Shown: positions 3,700-63,200 of the stretch, in pieces
Layout of the letters: the number at the start of each line of letters is the position of its first letter
Numbering within the stretch: the stretch's first letter is position 1
Origin: Eledone cirrhosa
Taxonomy: Eukaryota
Assembly (NCBI GenBank): GCA_964016885.1
Contig: OZ024740.1
Span: 307,582,001 to 307,646,000, forward strand
Reading direction: 5' to 3'
Length of the DNA stretch: 64,000 nucleotides
Program-made: the position numbers and the translations under genes
The notes under the pieces: model-generated
Databases searched by the model: none
What the model saw: only the letters and a program-made list of their open reading frames with translations
What the model was told of the DNA's origin: nothing

Positions 3700-6600
3700 A
3701 ACAGCCAAACCACTACCATCTACACCTCGAATATTACCACAACCACTGACACCAATAAGATCCGCGTCTAGATCCACAAACACCAATACTATTACCAACA
3801 GCACTACTATCACCACCACCGCCACAGTAGCAATCGCCAACAACAACACTAGCGATACACAACCACCATCTACACCATTACCAACACCAACACCGCCAAC
3901 ACCATCACCGTCTACACCATCACCATCTACACCACTACCAATACCACCACCACTACCAATACCAACAACAACACCACCACCATCACCATCAACACCACTA
4001 CCAATACCACCACCAACACACACACCACCAACACCAATACCACCAACACCATGACCACCAACACCATCACCACCAACACCAATACCACCAACACCATCAC
4101 CACCAACAACATCACCACCACTACCACCAACACCAATACCACCAACACCATGACCACCAACACCATCACCACCAACACCAATACCACCAACACCACCAAC
4201 ACCAACACCACCACCACCACTACCACCAACACCATCACCACCACTACCACCAACACCATCACCACCAACACCAATACCACCAACACCACCAACACCAACA
4301 CCACCAACACCATCACCACCACTACCACCACTACCAATACCACCAACACCAATACCACCAACACCACCAACACCAATACCACCAACACCAATACCACCAA
4401 CACCACCAACACCATCACCACCAACACCAATACCACCAACACAATCACCACCAACACCAATACCACCAACACCACCACTACCACTAACACCATCACCACC
4501 ACTACCACCAACACCATCACCACCAACACCAATACCACCAACACCACCAACACCACTACCACCAACACCATCACCACCACTACCACCAACACCATCACCA
4601 CCAACACCAATACCACCAACACCACCAACACCAATACCACCAACACCACCAACACCAACACCACCACTACCACCAACACCATCACCACCAACACCAACAC
4701 CACCAACACCAACACCACCAACACCAACACCACCAACACCAACACCACCACTACCACCAACACCATCACCACCAACACCAATACCACCAACACCATCACC
4801 ACCACTACCACCACTACCAATACCACCAACACCAATACCACCAACACCACCAACACCAATACCACCAACACCATCACCACCAACACCATCACTACCAACA
4901 CCACTACCACCAACACTATCACCACCACTACCACCAACACCATCACCACCAACACCAATACCACCAACACCACCAACACCAATACCACCAACACCAATAC
5001 CACCAACACCAACACCACCACTACCACCAACACCATCACCACCAACACCAATACCACCAACACCACCAACACCACTACCACCAACACCATCACCATCACC
5101 ACCACTACCACCAACACCACCAACACCACTACCACCAACACCATCACCACCAACACCAATACCACCAACACCAATATCACCAACACCATCACCACCACTA
5201 CCACCAACACCATCACCACAAACACCATCACCACCAACACCAACACCACCACTACCACCAATACCATCACCATCACCACCACTACCACCAACACCATCAC
5301 CACCACTACCACCAACACCATCACCACCAACACCAATATCACCAACACCATCACCACCAACACCATCACCATCACTACCACCAACACCATCACCACCAAC
5401 ACCAATACCACCAACACCATCACCACCACTACCACCAACACCATCACCACCAACACCAATATCACCAACACCATCACCACCAACACCATCACCACCACTA
5501 CCACCAACACCATCACCACCAACACCAATACCACCAACACCACCAACACCAACAACACCAACACCATCACCACCAATATCACCAACACCATCACCACCAA
5601 CACCATCACCACCACTACCACCAACACCATCACCACCAACACCAATACCACCAACACCACCAACACCAACACCACCAACACCATCACCACCACTACCACC
5701 ACTACCAATACCACCAACACCAATACCACCAACACCACCAACACCAATACCACCAACACCAATACCACCAACGCCACCAACACCATCACCACCAACACCA
5801 ATACCACCAACACCATCACCACCAACACCAATACCACCAACACCACCACTACCACTAACACCATCACCACCACTACCACCAACACCATCACCACCAACAC
5901 CAATACCACCAACACCACCAACACCACTACCACCAACACCATCACCACCACTACCACCAACACCATCACCACCAACACCAATACCACCAACACCACCACT
6001 ACCACCACTACCACCACTACCAATACCACCAACACCAATACCACCAACACCATCACCACCACTACCACCAACAGCAGCACGACCAACACCAATACCACCA
6101 ACACCACTACCACCAACACCATCACCATCACCACCACTACCACCAACACCATCACCATCACCACCAACACCAATACCACCAACACCATCACCACCACTAC
6201 CACCACTACCAATACCACCAACACCAATACCACCAACACCACCAACACCAATACCACCAACACCATCACCACCAACACCATCACCACCAACACCACTACC
6301 ACCAACACCATCACCACCACTACCACCAACACCATCACCACCAACACCAATACCACCAACACCACCAACACCACACCACCCACCACCACCACCATCACCA
6401 CCACTACCACAAACACCACCCACACCATCACCACCACACCAATACCACCAACACCAATATCACCAACACCATCACCACCACTACCACCCACACCCATCCC
6501 CACCCACACCATCACCCACCAACACCACACCACCACTACCACCAACACCATCACCATCACCACCACTACCACCAACACCATCCACCACCAACACCAATAC

Positions 6601-9105
6601 ACCAACACCATCACCACCAACACCATCACCACCACACCACCACACCACCACCACCCACACCATACCACCAACACCAATACCACGCACACCACACCACCAC
6701 TACCACCCAACACCACACCACCACACCATATCACCCACACCATCACCACCACACCATCACCACCACTACCACCAACACCACCACCCCCAACACCACACCA
6801 CCACACCACACCCACCCACACCATACCACCCCACCCCATACCACCACACCCACACCACCACTACCACCAACACCATCACCACCAACACCCATATCACCAA
6901 CACCATCACCACCAACACCATCACCACCACTACCACCAACACCCATCACCACCAACACCATCACCACCACACCATCACCACCACTACCACCCAACACCAC
7001 CACCACCAACACCCAATCACCAACACCACCACCCACCACACCACCACCCACCACTACCACCAACACCATCACCACCAACACCATATCACCAATACCATCA
7101 CCCACCACACCATCACCACCACTACCACCAACACCCATCACCCCCACACCATATCACCAACACCATCACCACCACACCATCCCACCACTACCACCAAGAC
7201 CACACCACCCAACACCAATATCACCCACACCATCACCACCAACACCATCACCACCACTACCACCAACACCATCACCACCAACCCCCATATCACCAACACC
7301 ATCACCACCAACACCATCACCACCACTACCACCACACCATCACCACCAACACCAATACACCAACACCATCACCACCAACACCACACCACCACAACCACCA
7401 ACACCATCACCACCACACCATCACCACCAACACCACACCACCACTACCACCAATACCATCACCACCAACACCAATATCACCAACACCCATCACCACCAAC
7501 ACCACCCAACACCAATTACCAACACCATCACCACCAACACCATCACCACCACACCACCACACCATCACCACCAACCACCACACCACCAACACCATCACCA
7601 CCACTACCACCAACACCATCACCACCACACCATCACCACAACACCCATCACCACCACTACCACCAACACCATCACCACCAACACCAATATCACCAACACC
7701 ATCACCCACCACACCACCAACCACCACCCAACACCAATATCACCAACACCATCACCACCAACACCATCACCACCCACTACCACCACACCACACCACCACA
7801 CCAATACCACCAACACTACCAACACCACTACCACCAACACCATCACCACCACTACCACCAACACCCATCACCACCAACACCAATACCACCAACCCCCCAC
7901 CCCACACCAACACCACCAACACCAACACCACCACTACCACCACTACCAACACCACCAACACCAATACCACCAACACCACACCACCACTACCACCAACACC
8001 AGCACCACCAACACCCATACCAACCACACCACCAACACCAAAACTACCAACACCACCACACCACACCACCACTACCACCAACACCATCACCACCACAACC
8101 ACCAACACCATCACCACCAACACCAATACCACCATCACCACCAACACCAATACCACCATCACCCACCAACACCATACCACCAACACCAACACCACCAACA
8201 CCACCACTACCACCAACACCATCACCACCACTACCACCAACACCATCACCACCAACACCAATACCACCAACACCACCAACAACCAATACACCAACACACC
8301 ACCAACACCATCACCACCACTACCACCAACACCATCACCACCACTACCACCAACACCATCACCACCACTACCACCAACACCATCACCACCACTACCACCA
8401 ACACCAATACCACCAACACCAATATCACCAACACCATCACTACCAACATCACCACCATCTACACCACTACCAACACCACCAATACCATCACCACCAACAT
8501 CACCACCATCTACACCACTACCAACACCACCAACACCATCACCACCAACATTACCACCATCTACACTACTACCAACACCACCAACACCATCACCACCAAC
8601 ATTACCACCATCTACACCACTACCAACACCACCAACACCATCACCACCAACATCACCACCATCTACACCACTACAACACCACCAACACCATCACCACCAA
8701 CATCACCACCATCTACACCACTACCAACACCACCAATACCATCACCACCAACATCACCACCATCTACACCACTACCAATACCACCAACCTCATCACCACC
8801 AACATCACCACCATCTACACCACTACCAATACCACCAACCTCATCACCACCAACATCACCACCATCTACACCACTACCAATACCACCAACCTCATCACCA
8901 CCAACATCACCACCATCTACACCACTACCAACACCACCAACACCATCGCCACCAACATCACCACCATCTACACTACTACCAACACCACCAACCTCATCAC
9001 CACCAACATCACCACCATCTACACCACTACCAACACCACCAACACCATCGCCACCAACATCACCACCATCTACACCACTACCAACACCACCAACACCATC
9101 ACCAT
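3700..9105. repeat. Degenerate (ACC/AAC/ATC/ACT/AAT)n trinucleotide tract with a 51-bp minisatellite at its 3' end
   Basis: Almost no G on the + strand, triplet periodicity; 8446-9105 repeats a 51-bp unit ([17 protein letters not shown] in one frame). Confidence 0.9.
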
Positions 9106-12143: not shown

Positions 12144-13965
12144 TTATACTTCTCTTAGGTCAGTGTTGTTTGTTTGGGTGTTGTTGTTATTCCATTCATT
12201 ATTTCTGTTTAGTCTTGGCCTTCTAAGTTCTATTTCACTGGCCTCTCTGATTTGCCTATCTGCTGGGTCATTTCTATGTTTAGATATTATTCTAATTTCT
12301 ATGTTGTCTATGTTACCGTCGTGTTGTTGTCTGGCATGTTCGTATAGTACTGACCCGTTTTTTCGTCCTTTTAGTTCCCCCCAGTGTTGGTCTATCCTTT
12401 CACCTATGCTACGAGCTGTCTCGGCTATGTATGTTGTTGTCATGTTTCTGCAAGTACCCTCTGTACATCTTATGCTATAGACTACGTTTCTAGTTTTACA
12501 GTTTATCCGGGGGTTTACCTTACATATGATACATTTCCTATTGGTACAGTGGGTTTTCTTAAAAGGGTAGGTTTTGCTGATCAGGGATTTGATGGTGGTT
12601 CCTGGCTTTTCTACCACCTTAATTTTTAAGTGGGTCTTTCTCAGGGCCTTTCTACACTGGTTAGCTAATTTCCCTCCAGGGGTAGCGTCCACAAAGATGA
12701 CACTCTGGTATCTCTGGTTGTCGTACCATGAGGTGGCTTTCCCTATCTTATGTCTAGCCCTATCTAAGCTATTCCATGATTTGCTCCTGTATAATGGGCA
12801 AATTCCTTTCATGTCCAGTTCTATGAGGGTCTTATACTTCTCCATGGTTCCTTCGTATACTCTTATTCTGTCTCTTTGGTTGTAGCCAGAGAACTGCATG
12901 CAGTTGATGAAGTGTTAGATGTGTCTTTCCATTTCTGTTGGGTCGCACATGCGGGACAAATTCTTCATCACTCGTACCAAATCTGCGATTAGAATATTAA
13001 ACTTAGCACTACTGGACATTGCTGAGTTTTTGAGTATCAGGTATTTGGAGGCCATGGGTTTAGCATAGTGTGAGTGGAGAATTTGGGCTCTCTCGTCTAT
13101 AGTGTTAATCCAGAGTTCCGTGTCTAATACAGGTAGTCTATTGTTAGGGTGTTTGGAAGGGAAGTCGATAGTTACAGTTATACTCTGGTGTATGGAATTA
13201 GCTATCTGCTGGATGCTTTCCATTGTGCTACGTTCTAAATCAAACTTGTTAGTGCTCTCTTGTGGGGATGTTCTTATAACTATATTGATATCGTCTACGT
13301 AACGAGAGTACATGATGAGGTCTATGGAGCTCTCATTAAGGAGATCTTTAAGTCTCCTTTCCCACCATACCATGAAAAGGTTGGCAACATCACCAGCTAT
13401 GCTGACGCCAATGGCTGCTCCCTCATTTTGGGTGTAGATCTTCTCGTTGAACTTGAATATGTGGCCCTTTAGGGTAGTTTTGATACTAGCCCCCATTGCA
13501 TGTGCGACCATTTTTCTTACCTGATCATTGTTTTGGGGGGTCCGTATAGCTTTGGTCCACTCAATCCACCTTCCCATGGGAGTCTTTTTTGCCATTGAGG
13601 TTAGGGTGGGGGGGTCTACCTCTTATGGGTCTACTAGGGCAGAAACGTCTAAGGTCATGGCTGTCTAGGTAGTCAGTGTCGTAGGTAAGTCTAAGTAGGA
13701 GGCCCAGTTCGTCTGTGTCTACGTCGCAGAACTCCACCTCACTCTCAATGATCATCTCCACACATTTTTCCACAGCAAAATCAATGTTAATGGATGGGTA
13801 CAGTGATACCACATCCATGCTGCCTATTATGCAGTTGGATAGGTTCCTGTTTTTGTTGCACTCACTGATTCTGCTGAGGAGGTCCTCTGTACTGTCACAT
13901 ACATCTGGGGACATCTTGATTATGGGTCGTATAACCATTGAGAGGAAGTAGGAGATCCTGTAGTT
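12144..13965 (-). pseudogene. Penelope-like element RT plus C-terminal GIY-YIG endonuclease, 5' truncated
   Basis: RT motifs MDVVSLYPSI, GAAIGVSIAGDVANLFM, YSRYVDDI, LPVLD; Cys-rich linker CTNRKCIIC; VVYSIRC...TYIAETARSIGERIDQH; one frameshift near 13600 and one stop at 12915-12917. Confidence 0.9.
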
Positions 13966-14333
13966 GCTATATACAACTTCTACTTATATATATATATACT
14001 TAGGTTAGTAGGAGTTAGGTATTATATACCCGTGTCCCGTTAAGGTATTGGCAGCATAATAATTAGCTCTATGCTATATATATATACTATTTTGGCAATT
14101 TCAAAACGGAAACTCCTTCAAGAGGTGGAAGCAAGCGAACGAACTACTATGGAGAGCATTTTTAGTCAATGCAGTGGAAGTTAACCTTGTCCTTATGATA
14201 ACTTGGTAGAGTAGAGTGGGGAAAAACTTCAACTGAGTTATACATATTGTTGTCTAAATAGTTTTTATGTATAATCTGTGGGTATAGACTATGATAAAGC
14301 GTATATTGCCGTTTATTGTGGAGAGATTGGTGC

Positions 14334-27713: not shown

Positions 27714-27719
<6 letters not shown>

Positions 27720-28406
27720 GGTAACAGATTATTGTTATATGCAGTCCACTTAAGTGTAGTCCAGTTATAGTACTCCGGGTAGTGGATGATATCAACGCTT
27801 GGCTAAGTTTGACTCAACAAGGCGTTTCCATAGTGATGTTGCGAGTACGCTGTAATTCCTATGTTGTAAACACTTGGAGTAATGATAAATCAGGAAAGAA
27901 GAGTGACACGGTTTGCTATACAAAAAAGGTTTTTAATCTCATTGCTGACAATTGTTTCTCTGAACTGGTAGGTCTAGAGATCGCTACCCGCTTGTTTTCA
28001 CGTCATTCGATCACCAATACATAGTTATAACCTTTTCAATTCATCGGAGCTTGTGAGTCAATTCATTCTCACAAGCTCCGATGAATTGAAAAGGTTATAA
28101 CTATGTATTGGTGATCGAATGACGTGAAAACAAGCGGGTAGCGATCTCTAGACCTACCAGTTCAGAGAAACAATTGTCAGCAATGAGATTAAAAACCCTT
28201 TTTGTATAGCAAACCGTGTCACTCTTCTTTCCTGATTTATCATTACTCCAAGTGTTTACAACATAGGAATTACAGCGTACTCGCAACATCACTATGGAAA
28301 CGCCTTGTTGAGTCAAACTTAGCCAAGCGTTGATATCATCCACTACTCGGAGTACCGTAACTGGACTACACTTAAGTGGACTACCTATAACAATAATCTG
28401 TTACCC

Positions 28407-28411
<5 letters not shown>
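27714..28411. mobile_element. Near-perfect ~700-bp palindrome of family B carrying two variant HHRs
   Basis: Arms ~343 bp, loop 28058-28067; HHRs at 27944-28050 (-) and 28075-28181 (+). Confidence 0.85.
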
Positions 28412-29899
<1,488 letters not shown>

Positions 29900-39362: not shown

Positions 39363-40562
39363 CATATATATACATATATATATATACATATATATATACA
39401 TATATAAGATTAATTTATTAACATAAGAGATCTGTCTAACTTATATGTTGAGTGCAATGAATTATGTATGAATAGTATGTGAGTTATATATGCAAGTATA
39501 ACTTGATGGATAGATTAATGACATTGTAAATGAGGGATGTATTTGTCTGCCCTAGAGATGTATTTGGCTTTGCCATACGCTGCTCTAGAACTTACCAGGA
39601 GTTATGTAGCCATAATTCTAATAGGTCCCTTGACATGTTCTGAGAGTAAACTACATTTGTAGTGAACTTTGATATAAAGATATGGCTCTTTGTATGGAGT
39701 ATTCAGTTGTAGCACTGTATGATACCTTTAGTACATCATGATAGAGTAGACTGTATTTAAAATTGGAAACTGGATATAAATATATAACCGTCTATATAAG
39801 GGACTCAATTGAGGCGCCTTATAATGTATGTTAGAACAATGAATTTAGTTATGGTAATCAGCTAGTTACCTCCCCTTACGCATTAACTCCCCTTAATTAC
39901 ACACTTACTTCCGGATAATAAACCGCTGTAAATTCTCGCAGCAGAATCAACCTATTCTATAAATTTGGATTAAATAACACTGAGCCGCAATAACCTAAAA
40001 TAATTTTATTTAATGCATCAAACATCCAATACGGAATCATCGTTACTTATGTGATGGATGTAAAAACTATGTATTACTTTTCATGAATGTGAAAATGGTG
40101 GTGGATACGAAAACCATAACTTTGTTTTGCTTCTCCTTTTATTTTTATTTTTCTGCACACATACTTTTTTATTATATACAAAATATACCTTACCACTACA
40201 ACCACCATAATGCTCTTACTTACCCGCTTAAAGTGTTTGTATTACATGTAACACCCTACCACACAATAATCATATATAAATGGGACACACTTGCATGCCC
40301 CACGTGTAACTAACGCATACACTAACTACTACATCTGACTAACAAACTATTCTCTTGCATTATCTGTGTTATCTGCCGAATGTATTTTAATTTTGTTTTA
40401 ATTTTGTTTTAATTTTAATTTTGATTTGATTTTGAATTTGAATTACTATACAGAAATAATATAGTATAATATATGTCACTCCACTGTACATCAATATATA
40501 TATATGTATCTATGTCTCTTGCGTTGGAAAGGAAGTCAATTATGTGTACAAACATTGAAAAA

Positions 40563-40609
40563 TGCTCCGAAGAATCCAAGCCTAGGTTTGGATGAAACAA
40601 TTGTAAGTG
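40563..40609 (+). ncRNA. Hammerhead ribozyme with CCGAAGA core variant
   Basis: tgct CCGAAGA atccaagc ctag gtttggat GAAA caatt GTA agtg, followed by AATAAA. Confidence 0.7.
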
Positions 40610-40806
40610 AATAAATGCTTTGAACAAAGCTTTGATTCTTGTGAATTCTATATAACTGCTCTGTAGAACAACTAATGTTATTACATTGAGCTATTTATCT
40701 TACTGGTAATAAGGTAGTAGTAAATTACTGACCTTCACTGTTTAGGGTTTAAAATAACTATAAAAAGTTTTAGTATATACATAACCATAAATAGTATCCT
40801 TAATAT

Positions 40807-47287: not shown

Positions 47288-48251
47288 GCACATATATTTT
47301 TTTGTGTTGCACCATAGAGCATGTGTGTTTACGTATGTCATTGTGTTTATATGTGGGTAGAGATGTGTGCTGATGTAGGTATGTATGTTGACGTGTGTAT
47401 GTTGTGGGTTCGTCTTAGGGAGAAGTGTTTAGACGGGGTCCGTATTTGTGCCCTAAAACTCAGTACCCAGGACCTTAGACACCTTAAAGTAAATCAACCA
47501 AAACTAAAAGCTCTTCCATACATCTCCACACACAACCCCCTCAACAATGAGGCCTTTGACACCATCCTCCAGAACATCCCTGTATTGAAAAAGGACCATA
47601 GAATGAACCAAATTCTACGAACACACGATATCATAAAGAGCAAAAGACAATCCAAGTCAATGAAAAACATCTTAACACATGCCAAAGTACTGCCAACCAC
47701 AACAACGAAACCCACAGTAAAAAAATGCGATAGACCCAACTGTGGCATTTGCATCAACCTAATAAAGGGTTCGGAATTCTATTTCAAAGATGGACAACGT
47801 TTTATAGTAAAACACAATTTCACATGTGCATCGGAAAATCTAATATATGTATTAACTTGTTCAGGTTGTCGAGAACAATACATAGGCCATACCAAAAACA
47901 GCCTCCGCCAACGCATGACTGTCCATAGATCCCAAATTAAAATACGGGAATACAGGAAAATACCACTGAGTGAACACATTGATACCTGTGCCGCCCAAAA
48001 TCATCCCAACTTCAGAATCTTTCCCCTCTACAAATTCAAAGATAATGCCACCCACAGCCAGCGCATCAGCAAGGAATCTTACTTCATTAACAAATACGGA
48101 CCCCGTCTAAACACTTCTCCCTAAGACGAACCCACAACATACACACGTCAACATACATACCTACATCAGCACACATCTCTACCCACATATAAACACAATG
48201 ACATACGTAAACACACATGCTCTATGGTGCAACACAAAAAAATATATGTGC
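47288..48251 (+). mobile_element. 5'-truncated Penelope-like element with 162-bp inverted terminal arms
   Basis: 47288-47449 is the reverse complement of 48090-48251. Confidence 0.9.
47450..48124 (+). pseudogene. PLE linker plus GIY-YIG endonuclease, uninterrupted frame (Neptune-like Cys linker)
   Basis: [64 protein letters not shown]. Confidence 0.9.

Positions 48252-57774: not shown

Positions 57775-57776
<2 letters not shown>
57618..57776 (+). mobile_element. Family A element
   Basis: Starts at the same ggactaagtgacactttagtcc hairpin as the 43948 copy. Confidence 0.8.
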
Positions 57777-57842
<66 letters not shown>

Positions 57843-57848
<6 letters not shown>

Positions 57849-58606
57849 CAGGAAAGAAGGTTGACATGGTTTGCTATACAAAAAAGGTTTTTAATCTCAT
57901 AGCTGACAATTGTTTCTCTGAACTGGTAGGTCTAGAGATCGCTATACGCTTATTTTCGCGTTACTCGATCGCCAATACAAAATTATAACCAGTCAGATCT
58001 TCGGAGCATGCGAGAATGAAGAAAATACACAGGCAAGAAAAGAATATACAGGCTACTATATGAAGTAGTAATGGCATTCAATTAGAACAATAACAACAAT
58101 TACAACAATGCTATTAATAAATTATTTGAGGAGACCCTGACATCCCTTAGGTGGGGGGTATAATGTATCTAACGTTACGGCGTGTAAAACTAGCTGTCAT
58201 GAGGCGGAAGTAAGAGTTTGGCATGTACAGAGTATCGAAGTGTATATCAATTTTAAATTATAAAGATAAGCCATGCTCCGAAGATCTGACTGGTTATAAT
58301 TTTGTATTGGCGATCGAGTAACGCGAAAATAAGCGTATAGCGATCTCTAGACCTACCAGTTCAGAGAAACAATTGTCAGCTATGAGATTAAAAACCTTTT
58401 TTGTATAGCAAACCATGTCAACCTTCTTTCCTGATTTATTATTACTCCAAGTGTTTACAACATAGGAATTACGGCATACCCGCAGCATCACTATGAAAAC
58501 GCCTTGTTGAGTCAAACCAAGCCAAGCGTTAATATCATCCACTACCTGGAATACCATAACTGGACTTTACCTAAGTGGACTGCATTTAACTATTATTTGT
58601 TACCCC

Positions 58607-58609
<3 letters not shown>
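57843..58609 (+). mobile_element. Family B element with 168-bp inverted 5' arm and two variant HHRs
   Basis: 57843-58010 is inverted against 58272-58439; gct CCGAAGA tctga ctgg..ccag t tcaga GAAA caatt GTC agc. Confidence 0.85.
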
Positions 58610-58650
<41 letters not shown>

Positions 58651-58887
58651 TCCTTTCTCCAGTGCCCCGTTACAGAACCCCAGGATGATATCATCAAAAT
58701 CACACCTCTTCATCACCTCTGATGCCACTCCATCTTCTCCATGAGCCTTGCCCTCCTTGATCCTCTTCTTGGCTCTCTGAAGCTCCTCTCTGGTGAAGGG
58801 CTCTGTCTCAACATCCAGTTCCTCAAACAGCCGCCTGATCTCCCCAGTGCTCTGGGCTGTGGAGGGTGGCTCTCCTAGTAGGGTCCT

Positions 58888-60198
58888 AAAAGGAGTTGCC
58901 CCGAATCACTGGAGGATCAGTAACATCGTCCCAGTGCCAAAAAAGGGAGATCTCTCTAACACCAACAACTACAGGGGGATCTCACTGACGTCACTTGTGG
59001 AAAAGACCCTCAACAGGATGATTCTTAACAGGATCCAGCCTGAGATGGAGAAGAAGCTCAGGGATAACCAGAACGGCTTCAGAGAGGGTAGATCAACCAC
59101 CAGTCACATCCTGGTGCTGAGGAGGATATTAGAGGGAGCTAGAGCAAAGTGCCTTCCTGCGGTCATGGTTTTCATTGACTTTAGGAAGGCCTTTGATTCT
59201 GTGGACCGTTACTGCCTGATGAAGATCTTACAGGCTTATGGAATCCCCAAGAAGATAGTGGACCTGATATCACTGCTCTACACCAACACCAAAGCCCAAG
59301 TCATTACACCTGATGGGATGACAGAGTTCTTTGAGATACTGGCTGGAGTGCTCCAGGGAGATACATTGGCTCCCTACCTTTTTATCATCGTAGTGGACTA
59401 TTGTATGCGCCTTGCACTGGAGAAACACCAGGACTCTGGCTTTACTGTAGCACCGGCTCAGAGCAGGAGAGTTAGGGCGAAAAAGGTATCGGATGCTGAA
59501 TTTGCCGACGACATAGTTTTGGTGACAAATACAGTGAAGGAGGCAGAGGATTTGATGCGGGAGGTTGAGACTGTGTCGATGAGTGTGGGGCTGAGAATGA
59601 ATGAGACTAAAACAAAATATCTGGTAGAGAATGTTGAGAAGCCAGAGGGGATCACTAATGTAGGCGGGAAGCCGCTAGAATTGGTTGAGGGCTTCCTGTA
59701 TTTGGGAGCAAAGATTGGGAATACGGAAGATGATGTGGTTGAGAGGAAGAGCAAGGCCTGGGCGGCGTGCCACAGCTTGAGATCGGTGTGGAAGTCGGAC
59801 CTTCGTAGAGACCTGAAAATCCGCCTCTTCATTGCTGTAGTGGAGTCTGTGCTGCTGTATGGGTCTGAGACTTGGACACTGACCAAGAAACTCACTCAGA
59901 TGGTGGATGGGTGCTACACGAGAATGCTGACGATGGCTCTGAACATTAATCAGTATACACTGAGGATGAAAAACTCAGAGCTGTATGGGAGCATCCCAAA
60001 AGTCAGCTCAAAAGTGACACAGAGGAGACTGAGGTTAGCTGGACATGCTCACCGACATCCAGAGTTGACATTGCACTCAGTGCTCCTTTGGGAGCCCCTA
60101 CATGGACACACTAGAAGAGGAAGACCAAGGTTAACGTATGTTGATGCCCTAAGGACAGACACTGGTCTGTTGGAGACGCAGGACATGGCAGCGATAAT
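58888..60198 (+). pseudogene. RTE-clade reverse transcriptase, open frame but no APE or true start
   Basis: IVPVPKKGD..NYRGISL; QNGFREGRST; FIDFRKAFDSV; GVLQGDTLAPYLF; FADDI; FLYLG; LLYGSETWTL. Confidence 0.92.
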
Positions 60199-60384
60199 TG
60201 TTTCTACTTTAGGCACAAGGCCAGCAATTACCCAGTGCATTACTGGTACTTTATTTTATCGACCCCGTAAGGATGAAAGGCAAAGTCAACCTCGGCGGGA
60301 TTTGAACTCAGATCGTAAAGGGACGTAACTATGCTGGAAAGCATGGCGTCCGACCCTCTACCGATACTGCCAATCCACCGCCCT
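60199..60384 (-). mobile_element. tRNA-derived SINE inserted into the RTE ORF
   Basis: Perfect 13-bp TSD tggcagcgataat (60186-60198, 60385-60397). Confidence 0.92.
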
Positions 60385-61244: not shown

Positions 61245-63200
61245 GTTTTCAAAGGCCAGGATTACTTAAGAAATATTTAAAATACTATTGAAAACTTGGA
61301 GAAAACGGAGAAAATTCTAGTGAAGTCTGACAAAACCAATAATCTTTACGGAATACAAAAGGACATTTATAACGATCTTATATTAAAGGAATTAAGAAAG
61401 AAATACAAAGTAGCAAATAAAAACGACCTTGAAAAATTGAATACAGATGCCTCTTATATAATGCATGAACTAGGCATTGAAAATAGAACACAACCCTTCA
61501 TGCCAAGGAAACCTAAGATTAATATGAAGGATCATAAAAGGAACTTCGAAACTGATTTACCAGTCAGATTAATTGCACCATCTAAATCGGACCTTGGCAG
61601 ACTTAGCAAAAATATTCTGGACAGAATAATACCACAAATTAAGAATGTATCTTTTTTTTAAATTATGGAAAGGAACTAGTGAAGTTATCGATTGGTTTAA
61701 AGAAATTAAATATAACTATAATAATAAGTTTATTCAGTTGTATATTGCTAACTATTATTCATCTATCACTCCTAATCTACTGAATAAGGCACTAACTTAC
61801 GCATTTAAACATACAGACATAACTAGCAATTAAATGCACATTATATTATCGGCACGGAAAACATTAATAGAATTTAATAACCAACTCTGGACTAGAAATA
61901 ATAATTTCGATATAACTATGGGATCATCCGATTCCGCTCAGGTAACGGATCTTGTGGGCCTATTTATAATTAATTCTCTACATAGAAAAATACCTGAGAT
62001 AACCGGAGGTTTATATCGTGACGACATGCTTTTACTTATAGAAAATAATAACTGCGAACTAAATAGAAAAAGAAAACAAATTATACAATTTTTTAATTAC
62101 CTTAATCTAAAAGTAGAAATAGAGAATAACCCTAAAATAGTCAATTTTCTAGATGTAACACTAAATCTTAACACATGTCTTCATTATCCATTTCACAAAC
62201 TAAATGAGAACTTACATTACGTCAATTTTAACTCTAATCACCCCCAGATCCGTTAAAAATACTATAGTGAACTCTGTACAAGAACGAATTTCGAGAATTT
62301 CAGCTAATAAGAATATATTTGATGAAAAAGCACATTATTACAACGAAGCGTTAGGTAGAGCTGGGTATAGAAATAAAATTAAATGCATCGATAATAATAA
62401 TAATATAACAACTAACCATAATCGTAACAATTTAAACTATGGTAACAATTTTAACAACTATAATAGAAAACCTTACATTAATTCCGAAAGCCAAAAAAGA
62501 AATAGAACTAGGAACATATTATGGTTCGCTCCTCCTTTCTCATTAAATATTAAAACCCCTATTGCTAAACTATTTTTTAAAGCTCTTGACAAATGCTTCC
62601 CTAGAACACATAGATATTACTCAATTTTTAATAGACATACTATAAAATTAACTTATTCTTCCACCAACAATTGAGCGCAAAATATTAATAGAATTACTAA
62701 TAAAAATTTAAAACCTAACCAAAATACCAACAATAACCCAAGCAATATTCAATCTGATAAATGTAACTGTAGAAATAAATCTAACTGTCCGTTAAATAAC
62801 AATTGCTTAGCTAAAAAATGTAGTATATAATTGTAATGTAAAAACTAATTTAAATTCATTTAATTATGTGGGATCTACTTCCACAGAGTTTAAATCCCGC
62901 TTCAATAATCATAAAAATTCTTTTACAGATCCAAACAGAACATCTTCAACTTCTCTATCTAGCCTATTATAGGACCTAAAACTAAAGAACGTTGAATATT
63001 CGTTGATTTGGAATATTATTTCAAAAGCTACTCCTTTTAACTCCTCTTCAGAAAATTGCGATGTTTGTATAGAGGAAATATTCTTTATATTAAAGACCAA
63101 AAATTCCCTGAACTTAAGGAATAATTTATTCAGTTGCTGCAGACATAGATTAAACTCAACGTTTAAATATAAATATAAATATAAATATAAATATAAATTT
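61245..63200 (+). pseudogene. Penelope-like element RT plus GIY-YIG (YRDD-type), several frameshifts and stops
   Basis: DKTNNLY; KDHK..RLIAPSKSDLG; FDITMGSSDSAQVTDLVG; GLYRDD; NFLDVTL; SNHP; WFAPPFS; CNCRNKSNCPL..VVY..YVGST..FKSRFNNHKNSF; CDVCIEE. Confidence 0.9.

Follow-up and report, generated by a model that had tools for sequence, protein, structure and literature searches.

A variant hammerhead motif with an inherited C at core position 4 and a long, covarying stem II in a Hydra-clade Penelope-like retrotransposon of Eledone cirrhosa

U4 is treated as an essential base of the hammerhead core, and its sole described natural change is a viroid variant. Within a 64-kb stretch of the Eledone cirrhosa genome (hereafter the window, meaning the whole stretch that was analysed), one site has the core CCGAAGA in place of CUGANGA. 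An earlier note on this DNA had read it as a natural core variant that keeps an extra domain of about 80 nt in stem II. We asked whether this motif is due to chance or decay, to what kind of element it belongs, and whether an RNA with C4 is likely to cleave itself.

The sequence at 58272-58384 reads as the note described, and can be drawn as a three-way junction open at stem I, which is the type I layout (Table 1; positions follow the standard hammerhead numbering). Across 30 sequences, stem I is paired in 88%, the foot of stem II in 92% and stem III in 100%. The core bases C3, G5, A6, G8, A9, G12, A13 and A14 are all present, as are the A15.1-U16.1 pair and the H at position 17 expected from the NUH rule (GUC in this copy). 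Because the strict consensus fails both at U4 (C at 58279) and at 10.1-11.1, where neither G-C nor another stable pair is found, we classed the motif as a variant hammerhead. Overall, these comparative features suggest that the RNA likely behaves as a type I hammerhead, with cleavage predicted. In terms of folding, the whole 113-nt motif gave z = -1.6, and the 81-nt insert by itself gave z = -3.15 (1/200 shuffles equally good), so the description of stem II as structured holds. In the predicted fold, the insert is one long hairpin with interruptions, through which the two halves of the core come together. Two of the pairs lack conservation: where this copy has the outer A-U of acgc/gcgt, relatives have acgtg/gcga, and its U-A at 10.1-11.1 is A.A or U.U in relatives. 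Some natural hammerheads accept U.U there (PMC3088659). The hammerhead fold of the monomer (-24.8 kcal/mol) lies 2.3 kcal/mol above the MFE (-27.1 kcal/mol), and a duplex through the stem III palindrome was computed at -7.8 kcal/mol. A K-turn or loop E identity for the internal loop was weighed against the general consensus and dropped.

As the site is one arm of an inverted pair, an identical hammerhead, which the note did not mention, lies on the opposite strand (58010-57897). The sister copy at 28075 keeps the core CCGATGA, as the note had said, and has an 82-nt insert; this copy folds poorly (z = -0.5), owing to changes in the 5' strand of its base helix. Rfam returned no hammerhead match to the motif, either at the gathering threshold or at E<=10, and no family for the insert. 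The U4 relatives likewise went undetected by Rfam.

Table 1. Positions of the motif, its arms and other element remnants in the 64-kb window.
Feature	Position	Strand	Remark
Type I hammerhead fold, plus-strand copy	58272..58384	+	Arm 5'-truncated exactly at the start of stem I
Stem I	CAUGCU 58272-77 / AGC(U)AUG 58378-84	+	
Core CCGAAGA (C3 C4 G5 A6 A7 G8 A9)	58278..58284	+	C4 (58279) instead of U4
Stem II, 81 nt	58285..58365	+	Base helix, A/U-rich asymmetric loop, conserved GUAUU/UAGAC helix start
Stem II, remainder	within 58285..58365	+	Covarying middle helix, AGU/UAG internal loop, 3-bp apical hairpin
GAAA	58366-69	+	
Stem III, 2 bp, palindromic AAUU loop (ACAAUUGU)	58369-76	+	
GUC, C17 = 58377; predicted cleavage between 58377 and 58378	58366..58377 (GAAA to GUC)	+	Site predicted from the hammerhead consensus
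Second, identical hammerhead on the inverted arm	57897..58010	-	Native upstream sequence retained
Inverted arm (assigned to the 3' UTR/pseudo-LTR of a Hydra-clade element)	57846..58273	-	Stops at the first fixed 3' end (62 nt beyond the predicted cleavage site)
Direct arm	58272..58439	+	To the first fixed 3' end
168-nt tail, 5' UTR of the next tandem unit	58440..58607	+	Ends at the second fixed 3' end; continues into an ORF in locus L040
(TA)n target, left	57776..57845		
(TA)n target, right	58608..58649		
Sister subfamily, 87-88% identical, inverted pair in (TA)n	27716..28412		CCGATGA hammerheads 28070-28186 (+) and 28055-27939 (-)
C4 hammerhead with short 20-nt stem II	40561..40612 (motif 40567-40605)	+	Same stem III; other abundant family
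Further canonical hammerheads	+48715/-48632, +51865, +60809, -61204, -45173, -37454, -26542, -20289, -11500		
Broken Hydra-type ORF	61281-63152	+	
Broken Penelope-like element, another clade	12144-13983	-	
GIY-YIG endonuclease fragment	47318-48124	+	
LINE-type RT fragment	58781-60328	+	Adjoins the C4 motif locus

To assess chance, exact motifs (all requiring GAAACAATTGTH) were counted on both strands of the genome, using the reversed pattern as a control; both arms of an insertion are counted, and a few long matches join an upstream core to a short hammerhead. C4 with a 65-95-nt stem II was found 4,001 times (control 3), and the motif is therefore not due to chance. With a stem II of 8-30 nt, there were 6,199 C4 motifs (control 4) and 8,019 U4 motifs (control 2). 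Allowing any base at position 4 with the 65-95-nt stem yielded 8,918 motifs (control 21), of which ~4,900 lack C4. The note had treated C4 and the long stem as a single package; each trait is real, but they are independent, as all four combinations occur.

For decay, we considered a family pattern that is blind to the core, which gave 1,982 matches (control 0). A hand count of the first 100 listed found CCGANGA in 80, U4 in 12 (9 in subfamilies with other diagnostic bases and 3 in the C4 background), G5A in 3 and other single changes in 5, for a C4 total of 88/100. The symmetry of three U4 and three G5A in the C4 background fits CpG decay after insertion. The note would have abandoned its reading had most copies shown CTGA or random bases, whereas most have C4. 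For the short-stem family, intact CCGANGA was present in 92 of the first 100 listed of 4,803 matches, and among older relatives C4 and U4 subfamilies are mixed. Judging from these counts, C4 is a fixed, inherited state of the family and not decay. A second inherited core variant, CUGAUGU (A9U), marks a subfamily seen repeatedly in the 100 matches listed for the older relatives (e.g., L287, L294, L308). There is also an abundant young C4 subfamily (L151, L157, L177) with the stem III loop AAAU, in which the palindrome is broken, and A17.

On the evidence of its ORF, target and arms, the C4 long-stem motif belongs to the 3' pseudo-LTR of a Hydra-clade Penelope-like element (PLE), an affiliation that the note had not recognised. 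Searching the 3.0-Gb genome with 58265-58607 gave 2,577 first-look candidates (97-100% identity in the 40 scored), and the young families are 98-99% identical. Longer copies contain an ORF with reverse transcriptase (RT) and a C-terminal endonuclease on the same strand, ending 0.75-1 kb upstream. In locus L040, the 168-nt tail leads into the start of the next ORF, and locus L034 has a 671-aa open stretch with RT motifs and a YIG motif. The translations of L040, L032 and L034 have RWK, DKT, a CxCX5C linker, and CxxC and CxH near the C-terminus, with no CCHH. The Hydra clade is defined by RWK, DKT, CxCX5C, no CCHH and a (TA)n target (PMC8557442). Also as in this clade, a single ORF combines RT with a C-terminal GIY-YIG-type endonuclease, and insertion is into (TA)n with tandem or inverted pseudo-LTRs and a tail. 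The placement is by motifs and target; reference proteins were compared as text, and the tree used metagenomic relatives. A protein search identified 373 relatives (31-47% identity in the 120 listed), and a Pfam scan of the element protein gave no match. In a query-anchored endonuclease tree, which is biased towards the query and links the short-stem family through 67 residues, C4 is found in three deep lineages.

Arms of the element stop at two fixed points, 62 nt (18/35 arms) and ~230 nt (16/35) past the predicted cleavage site. At this locus the fixed ends are 58439 and 58607, and TA-like bases of the element's own sequence follow each. The 168-nt tail here is far longer than the 30-40 bp described for PLEs (PMC8557442). 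Some other origins were considered and rejected: a Naiad is ruled out by the C-terminal endonuclease, and a MITE or foldback DNA transposon by arms that are variably 5'-truncated and lead into an RT ORF. For a non-LTR retrozyme, there is no short ORF-less head-to-tail array at the site, and long copies have an upstream ORF.

The note had named a stem II without covariation as a reason to give up its reading. When 30 diverse members are aligned by sequence alone, pairing is seen in 86% of cells, compared with 80.7% after shuffling (0/500), and there are 71 compensatory cells compared with 25.5 (0/500); the count of pairs with a double change was not significant (53/500). An R-scape-like all-pairs G-test with a tree null found no significant column pair in these 30 sequences (best E=0.36), and RNAalifold kept just 6 pairs. 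A tree-aware test restricted to the predicted pairs, using the 40/62 cluster representatives in which the core was intact and a central block of 49 nt could be parsed without gaps, gave 4.95 same-branch compensatory events against 0.62 +/- 0.86 for permuted partners (2/2000). The middle helix switches between C-G and U-A, G-C and A-U, and A-U and G-C, while the base helix is maintained by differing sequences in most clusters. The helix start GUA.U/UAGAC is nearly fixed, and the AGU/UAG loop is also conserved across subfamilies whose endonucleases are only 53-61% identical. Compensatory changes were seen in stem I as well as stem II. By its pattern of covariation, the extra arm is a conserved structural domain, and with the fixed C4 this bears out the claim of a natural core variant with an extra domain. 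No base was found that compensates C4: position 4 covaries with no column (best E>100, 30-sequence alignment). The stems II of other families are 62-97 nt long. Four further long-stem-II families share the ACAAUUGU stem III (L097, L081, L093 and L108, with 95-nt C4, 95-97-nt U4, 90-nt U4 and 62-nt U4 arms), some of which are tied to Hydra-type ORFs. Against the 81-nt arm, the other long inserts (90, 95, 95-97 and 62 nt) score 17-38 bits, and core-only matches score 25-35 bits.

We then considered whether the core is under selection, using 190 loci taken in genome order from three core-blind searches (50, 70 and 70); beyond the first 30 loci of each search, second arms were for the most part passed over. 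After removal of two loci without distinct sequence and 17 truncated or rearranged ones, 171 remained, and we mapped the changes on trees with pattern-fixed columns and two-leaf branches excluded. In lineages with a C4 parent, the 10 core sites had 0 internal-branch and 19 terminal changes, as compared to 68 and 264 elsewhere (P=0.031); with stem III added, there was 1 internal and 32 terminal changes (P=0.0099). The U4 lineages had 1 and 15 in the core (P=0.32), and 1 and 25 in core plus stem III (P=0.096). After removing G5 and CpG transitions, the C4 lineages gave P=0.079 for the core and P=0.039 for core plus stem III, and C4 and U4 lineages pooled gave P=0.004. Changes on internal branches fell on position 4 eight times, on N7 six times and on N17 about five times among the 171 copies. 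A or G at position 4 was confined to 3 single copies. N7 is A, U, G or C, so position 7 is as free as the note proposed, and N17 is A, C or U, with G in 2/171 copies. U4 and C4 interconvert repeatedly within one clade, in propagating lineages. These data suggest a modest signal of selection on the core in C4 lineages, with a catalytic pattern.

Much of this has precedent: PLE hammerheads, the Hydra clade and the viroid U4C variant are already known, and what appears to be new is the family-wide C4 and the long structured stem II in a PLE. In this sense the novelty that the note saw in U4C would hold for its family-wide state, but not for the change itself. The viroid hammerhead with the same substitution is much slower in vitro and sufficient in vivo (Ambros and Flores 1998, cited in PMC3088659); it is a rare variant of one plant viroid, whereas here C4 is the majority state of several animal retrotransposon families, with ~10,000 exact motifs. 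U4C is reported to reduce in vitro activity considerably, and where core variants are tolerated, this has been put down to tertiary contacts (PMC3088659). A deep scan likewise reports low activity for single mutants in the CUGA turn (PMC9901934).

Among PLEs, CUGANGA and a loop 2 of <=10 nt are found in each of the 26 Hydra rows in File S2, which also lists a Selaginella element with 35 nt in loop 2 (Craig et al. 2021, PMC8557442). The Eledone motif resembles these Hydra-clade hammerheads in its type I layout, its place in the 3' pseudo-LTR, its short stem III and a stem II whose foot has an unpaired or mismatched base, and differs in C4 and the 81-nt stem II. Minimal PLE hammerheads are described as having a palindromic stem III and low activity, for which a dimer model was proposed, and as occurring in thousands of scattered truncated copies, with opposite-strand pairs 100-700 bp apart (Cervera and de la Pena 2014, PMC4209133). 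The pseudo-LTR location, short palindromic stem III and opposite-strand pairs are shared with the Eledone motif. Their reported consensus is CUGANGAH with G10.1-C11.1, the core variant mentioned is U3-A8, and no C4 core occurs in the one supplement file searched (PMC4209133). The published PLE descriptor (cuganga, loop 2 of 3-10 nt; PMC4209133) would miss our motif on both counts, which together with the Rfam result agrees with the note's expectation that standard searches are blind to it. Descriptors in a 2026 paper accept CYGANGA and 98-nt loops but demand G10.1-C11.1 (PMC13481778), which the Eledone motif lacks. Non-LTR retrozymes are animal repeats with type I hammerheads, some with a 2-bp stem III and a U.U stem II foot, that are reported to act as dimers (PMC7229834; bioRxiv 2026.07.22.740005). 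They are short ORF-less tandem repeats, in contrast to the RT-endonuclease ORF and truncated inverted arms here. For the anole PLE PAc, the hammerhead is reported to cleave only with protein, the main substrate is uncut RNA, and hammerhead mutants did not impair insertion in vitro (PMC11167929). The likeness to our element is in the PLE hammerhead, the uncut template and the fixed tail ends marking RT start sites; PAc differs in being of the Penelope/Poseidon clade with a hammerhead overlapping the ORF start, and its description includes neither C4 nor a long stem II (PMC11167929). In the literature consulted, neither family-wide C4 nor an 80-nt structured stem II is described for PLEs; the PLE variant alignments of Lunse et al. 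2017 could contain C4 cases.

Considering all of this, we regard it as likely that the motif, with its fixed U4C and covarying 81-nt stem II, is a working hammerhead of the 3' pseudo-LTR that self-cleaves after GUC (58377), slowly and probably helped by a partner copy or the element protein. Of 70 tail-anchored copies, 67 extend upstream through the cleavage site and none start there (0/70), so genomic 5' ends carry no trace of cleavage at that point. As the copies read through the site, the template would have been either uncut or religated, and new copies would be made from such RNA. If copying is from uncut RNA, only a slow or gated ribozyme would suit the element; position 4 would then be free to drift between U and C and stem II to grow, and position 4 may thus have relaxed to Y in a slow, assisted ribozyme. 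Two copies would likely pair via the ACAAUUGU palindrome. As inverted arms are copies on opposite strands, the partner would have to come from a tandem unit or another molecule, and in the young C4 subfamily with a non-palindromic stem III loop, the dimer step would be weakened. For the extra arm, a role as a structural or protein-binding appendix is likely, rather than one in rescuing C4. Counting against this reading are the low in vitro activity of U4C and CUGA mutants (PMC3088659, PMC9901934) and the absence of G10.1-C11.1.

The same damage in vitro (PMC3088659, PMC9901934), along with copies made through an uncut site and the unimpaired insertion of the anole PLE with hammerhead mutants in vitro (PMC11167929), could instead mean that C4 lineages have lost all or nearly all catalysis and retain the fold as a signal for binding or processing by the RT/endonuclease or a host protein, with the conserved extra arm as the true functional part. 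We consider this unlikely, since the conserved set is the catalytic set (C3, G5, A6, G8, A9, G12-A14 and A15.1-U16.1, with N7 free and N17 avoiding G), and the repeated U4/C4 interconversion in one clade is easier if both states work. It is more improbable that the long stem II acts through tertiary contacts or allosterically, either to rescue a weak C4 core or to make cleavage depend on protein binding. Its GUAUU/UAGAC start and AGU/UAG loop are conserved despite the 53-61% endonuclease identity, and tertiary contacts have been invoked for tolerated core variants (PMC3088659), but the 6,199 C4 matches have short stems, ~4,900 of the 8,918 long-stem matches lack C4, and position 4 covaries with no column. 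These observations make rescue of C4 unlikely; the objection touches rescue rather than gating in general. Finally, the hammerhead could be dispensable, with C4 and the insert as neutral passengers of a few successful master elements: Naiad PLEs are reported to thrive without canonical hammerheads (PMC8557442), and given the 98-99% identity of the young families, high copy number alone is no sign of selection. We give this very little weight, as inherited core changes are in deficit (P=0.004 with both lineages pooled), stems I and II show compensatory changes, and C4, which forms a CpG prone to decay to U4 or A5, nevertheless persists in at least 3 deep lineages. A bolder extension of the slow-cleavage reading, which we offer tentatively and regard as rather doubtful, is that position 4 acts as a natural U/C rate switch keeping PLE self-cleavage slow, while the 60-95-nt stem II extension serves as a docking domain for RT/endonuclease gating, with ~9,000 genomic motifs missed by current searches.

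Outside of this genome, we considered 79 metagenomic Hydra-type protein loci (the best 80 of 530 were kept), which contained 56 sense-strand U4 matches with a short stem II. One clean C4 motif was found, a short hammerhead with a 6-bp stem I (L411:2286-2330); it sits in a neighbouring element, upstream of an unrelated U4 Hydra element, and is the only clear C4 case beyond this genome. None of the 79 loci had a convincing long stem II; model R1 gave 1 weak match among them, to a short hammerhead, and an insert-motif scan of metagenomes gave 0 matches. A pattern scan of viral contigs matched at least 100 stretches, which we took as chance, with stems in 0/80 examined. Related copies occur in contigs of a second organism (5 sequencing runs of unknown kind), in pieces too few to read position 4 confidently. 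As the metagenomic loci and the published Hydra rows are nearly without either trait, C4 and the long stem appear to be concentrated in this host lineage.

If these hammerheads still self-cleave, core position 4 is freer in nature than laboratory mutants suggest. Sister subfamilies that differ at position 4 but are otherwise matched, with either a short or a long stem II, provide natural test pairs, through which one could ask how much cleavage a PLE hammerhead requires and whether the element protein helps. Hammerhead censuses also overlook large families. For example, the screen of PLE clades in which hammerheads were reported as missing, such as the Naiads with their 'core only' motifs, used cuganga and a spacer of 7-17 nt (PMC8557442), and these clades merit a renewed search with CYGANGA and a long stem II.

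Some minor features of the window and its relatives were also noted. A poly(A)-signal-like AUUAAA lies directly past stem I (58387-58392, plus strand). AUUAAA or AAUAAA is found within 25 nt past the cleavage site in 13/37 distinct metagenomic Hydra hammerheads, compared with 0/37 upstream control windows, and the predicted cleavage would remove such a signal from the coding RNA. The window contains ten more type I hammerhead motifs, all with a canonical CUGANGA core and belonging to about seven families; a GIY-YIG ORF precedes the pair at 48.6-48.7 kb, and the motif at -11500 has a PLE ORF upstream. A degenerate tandem array rich in ACC/AAC takes up 5.2 kb (3864-9105), and its stop-free frames reach 1,846 codons.
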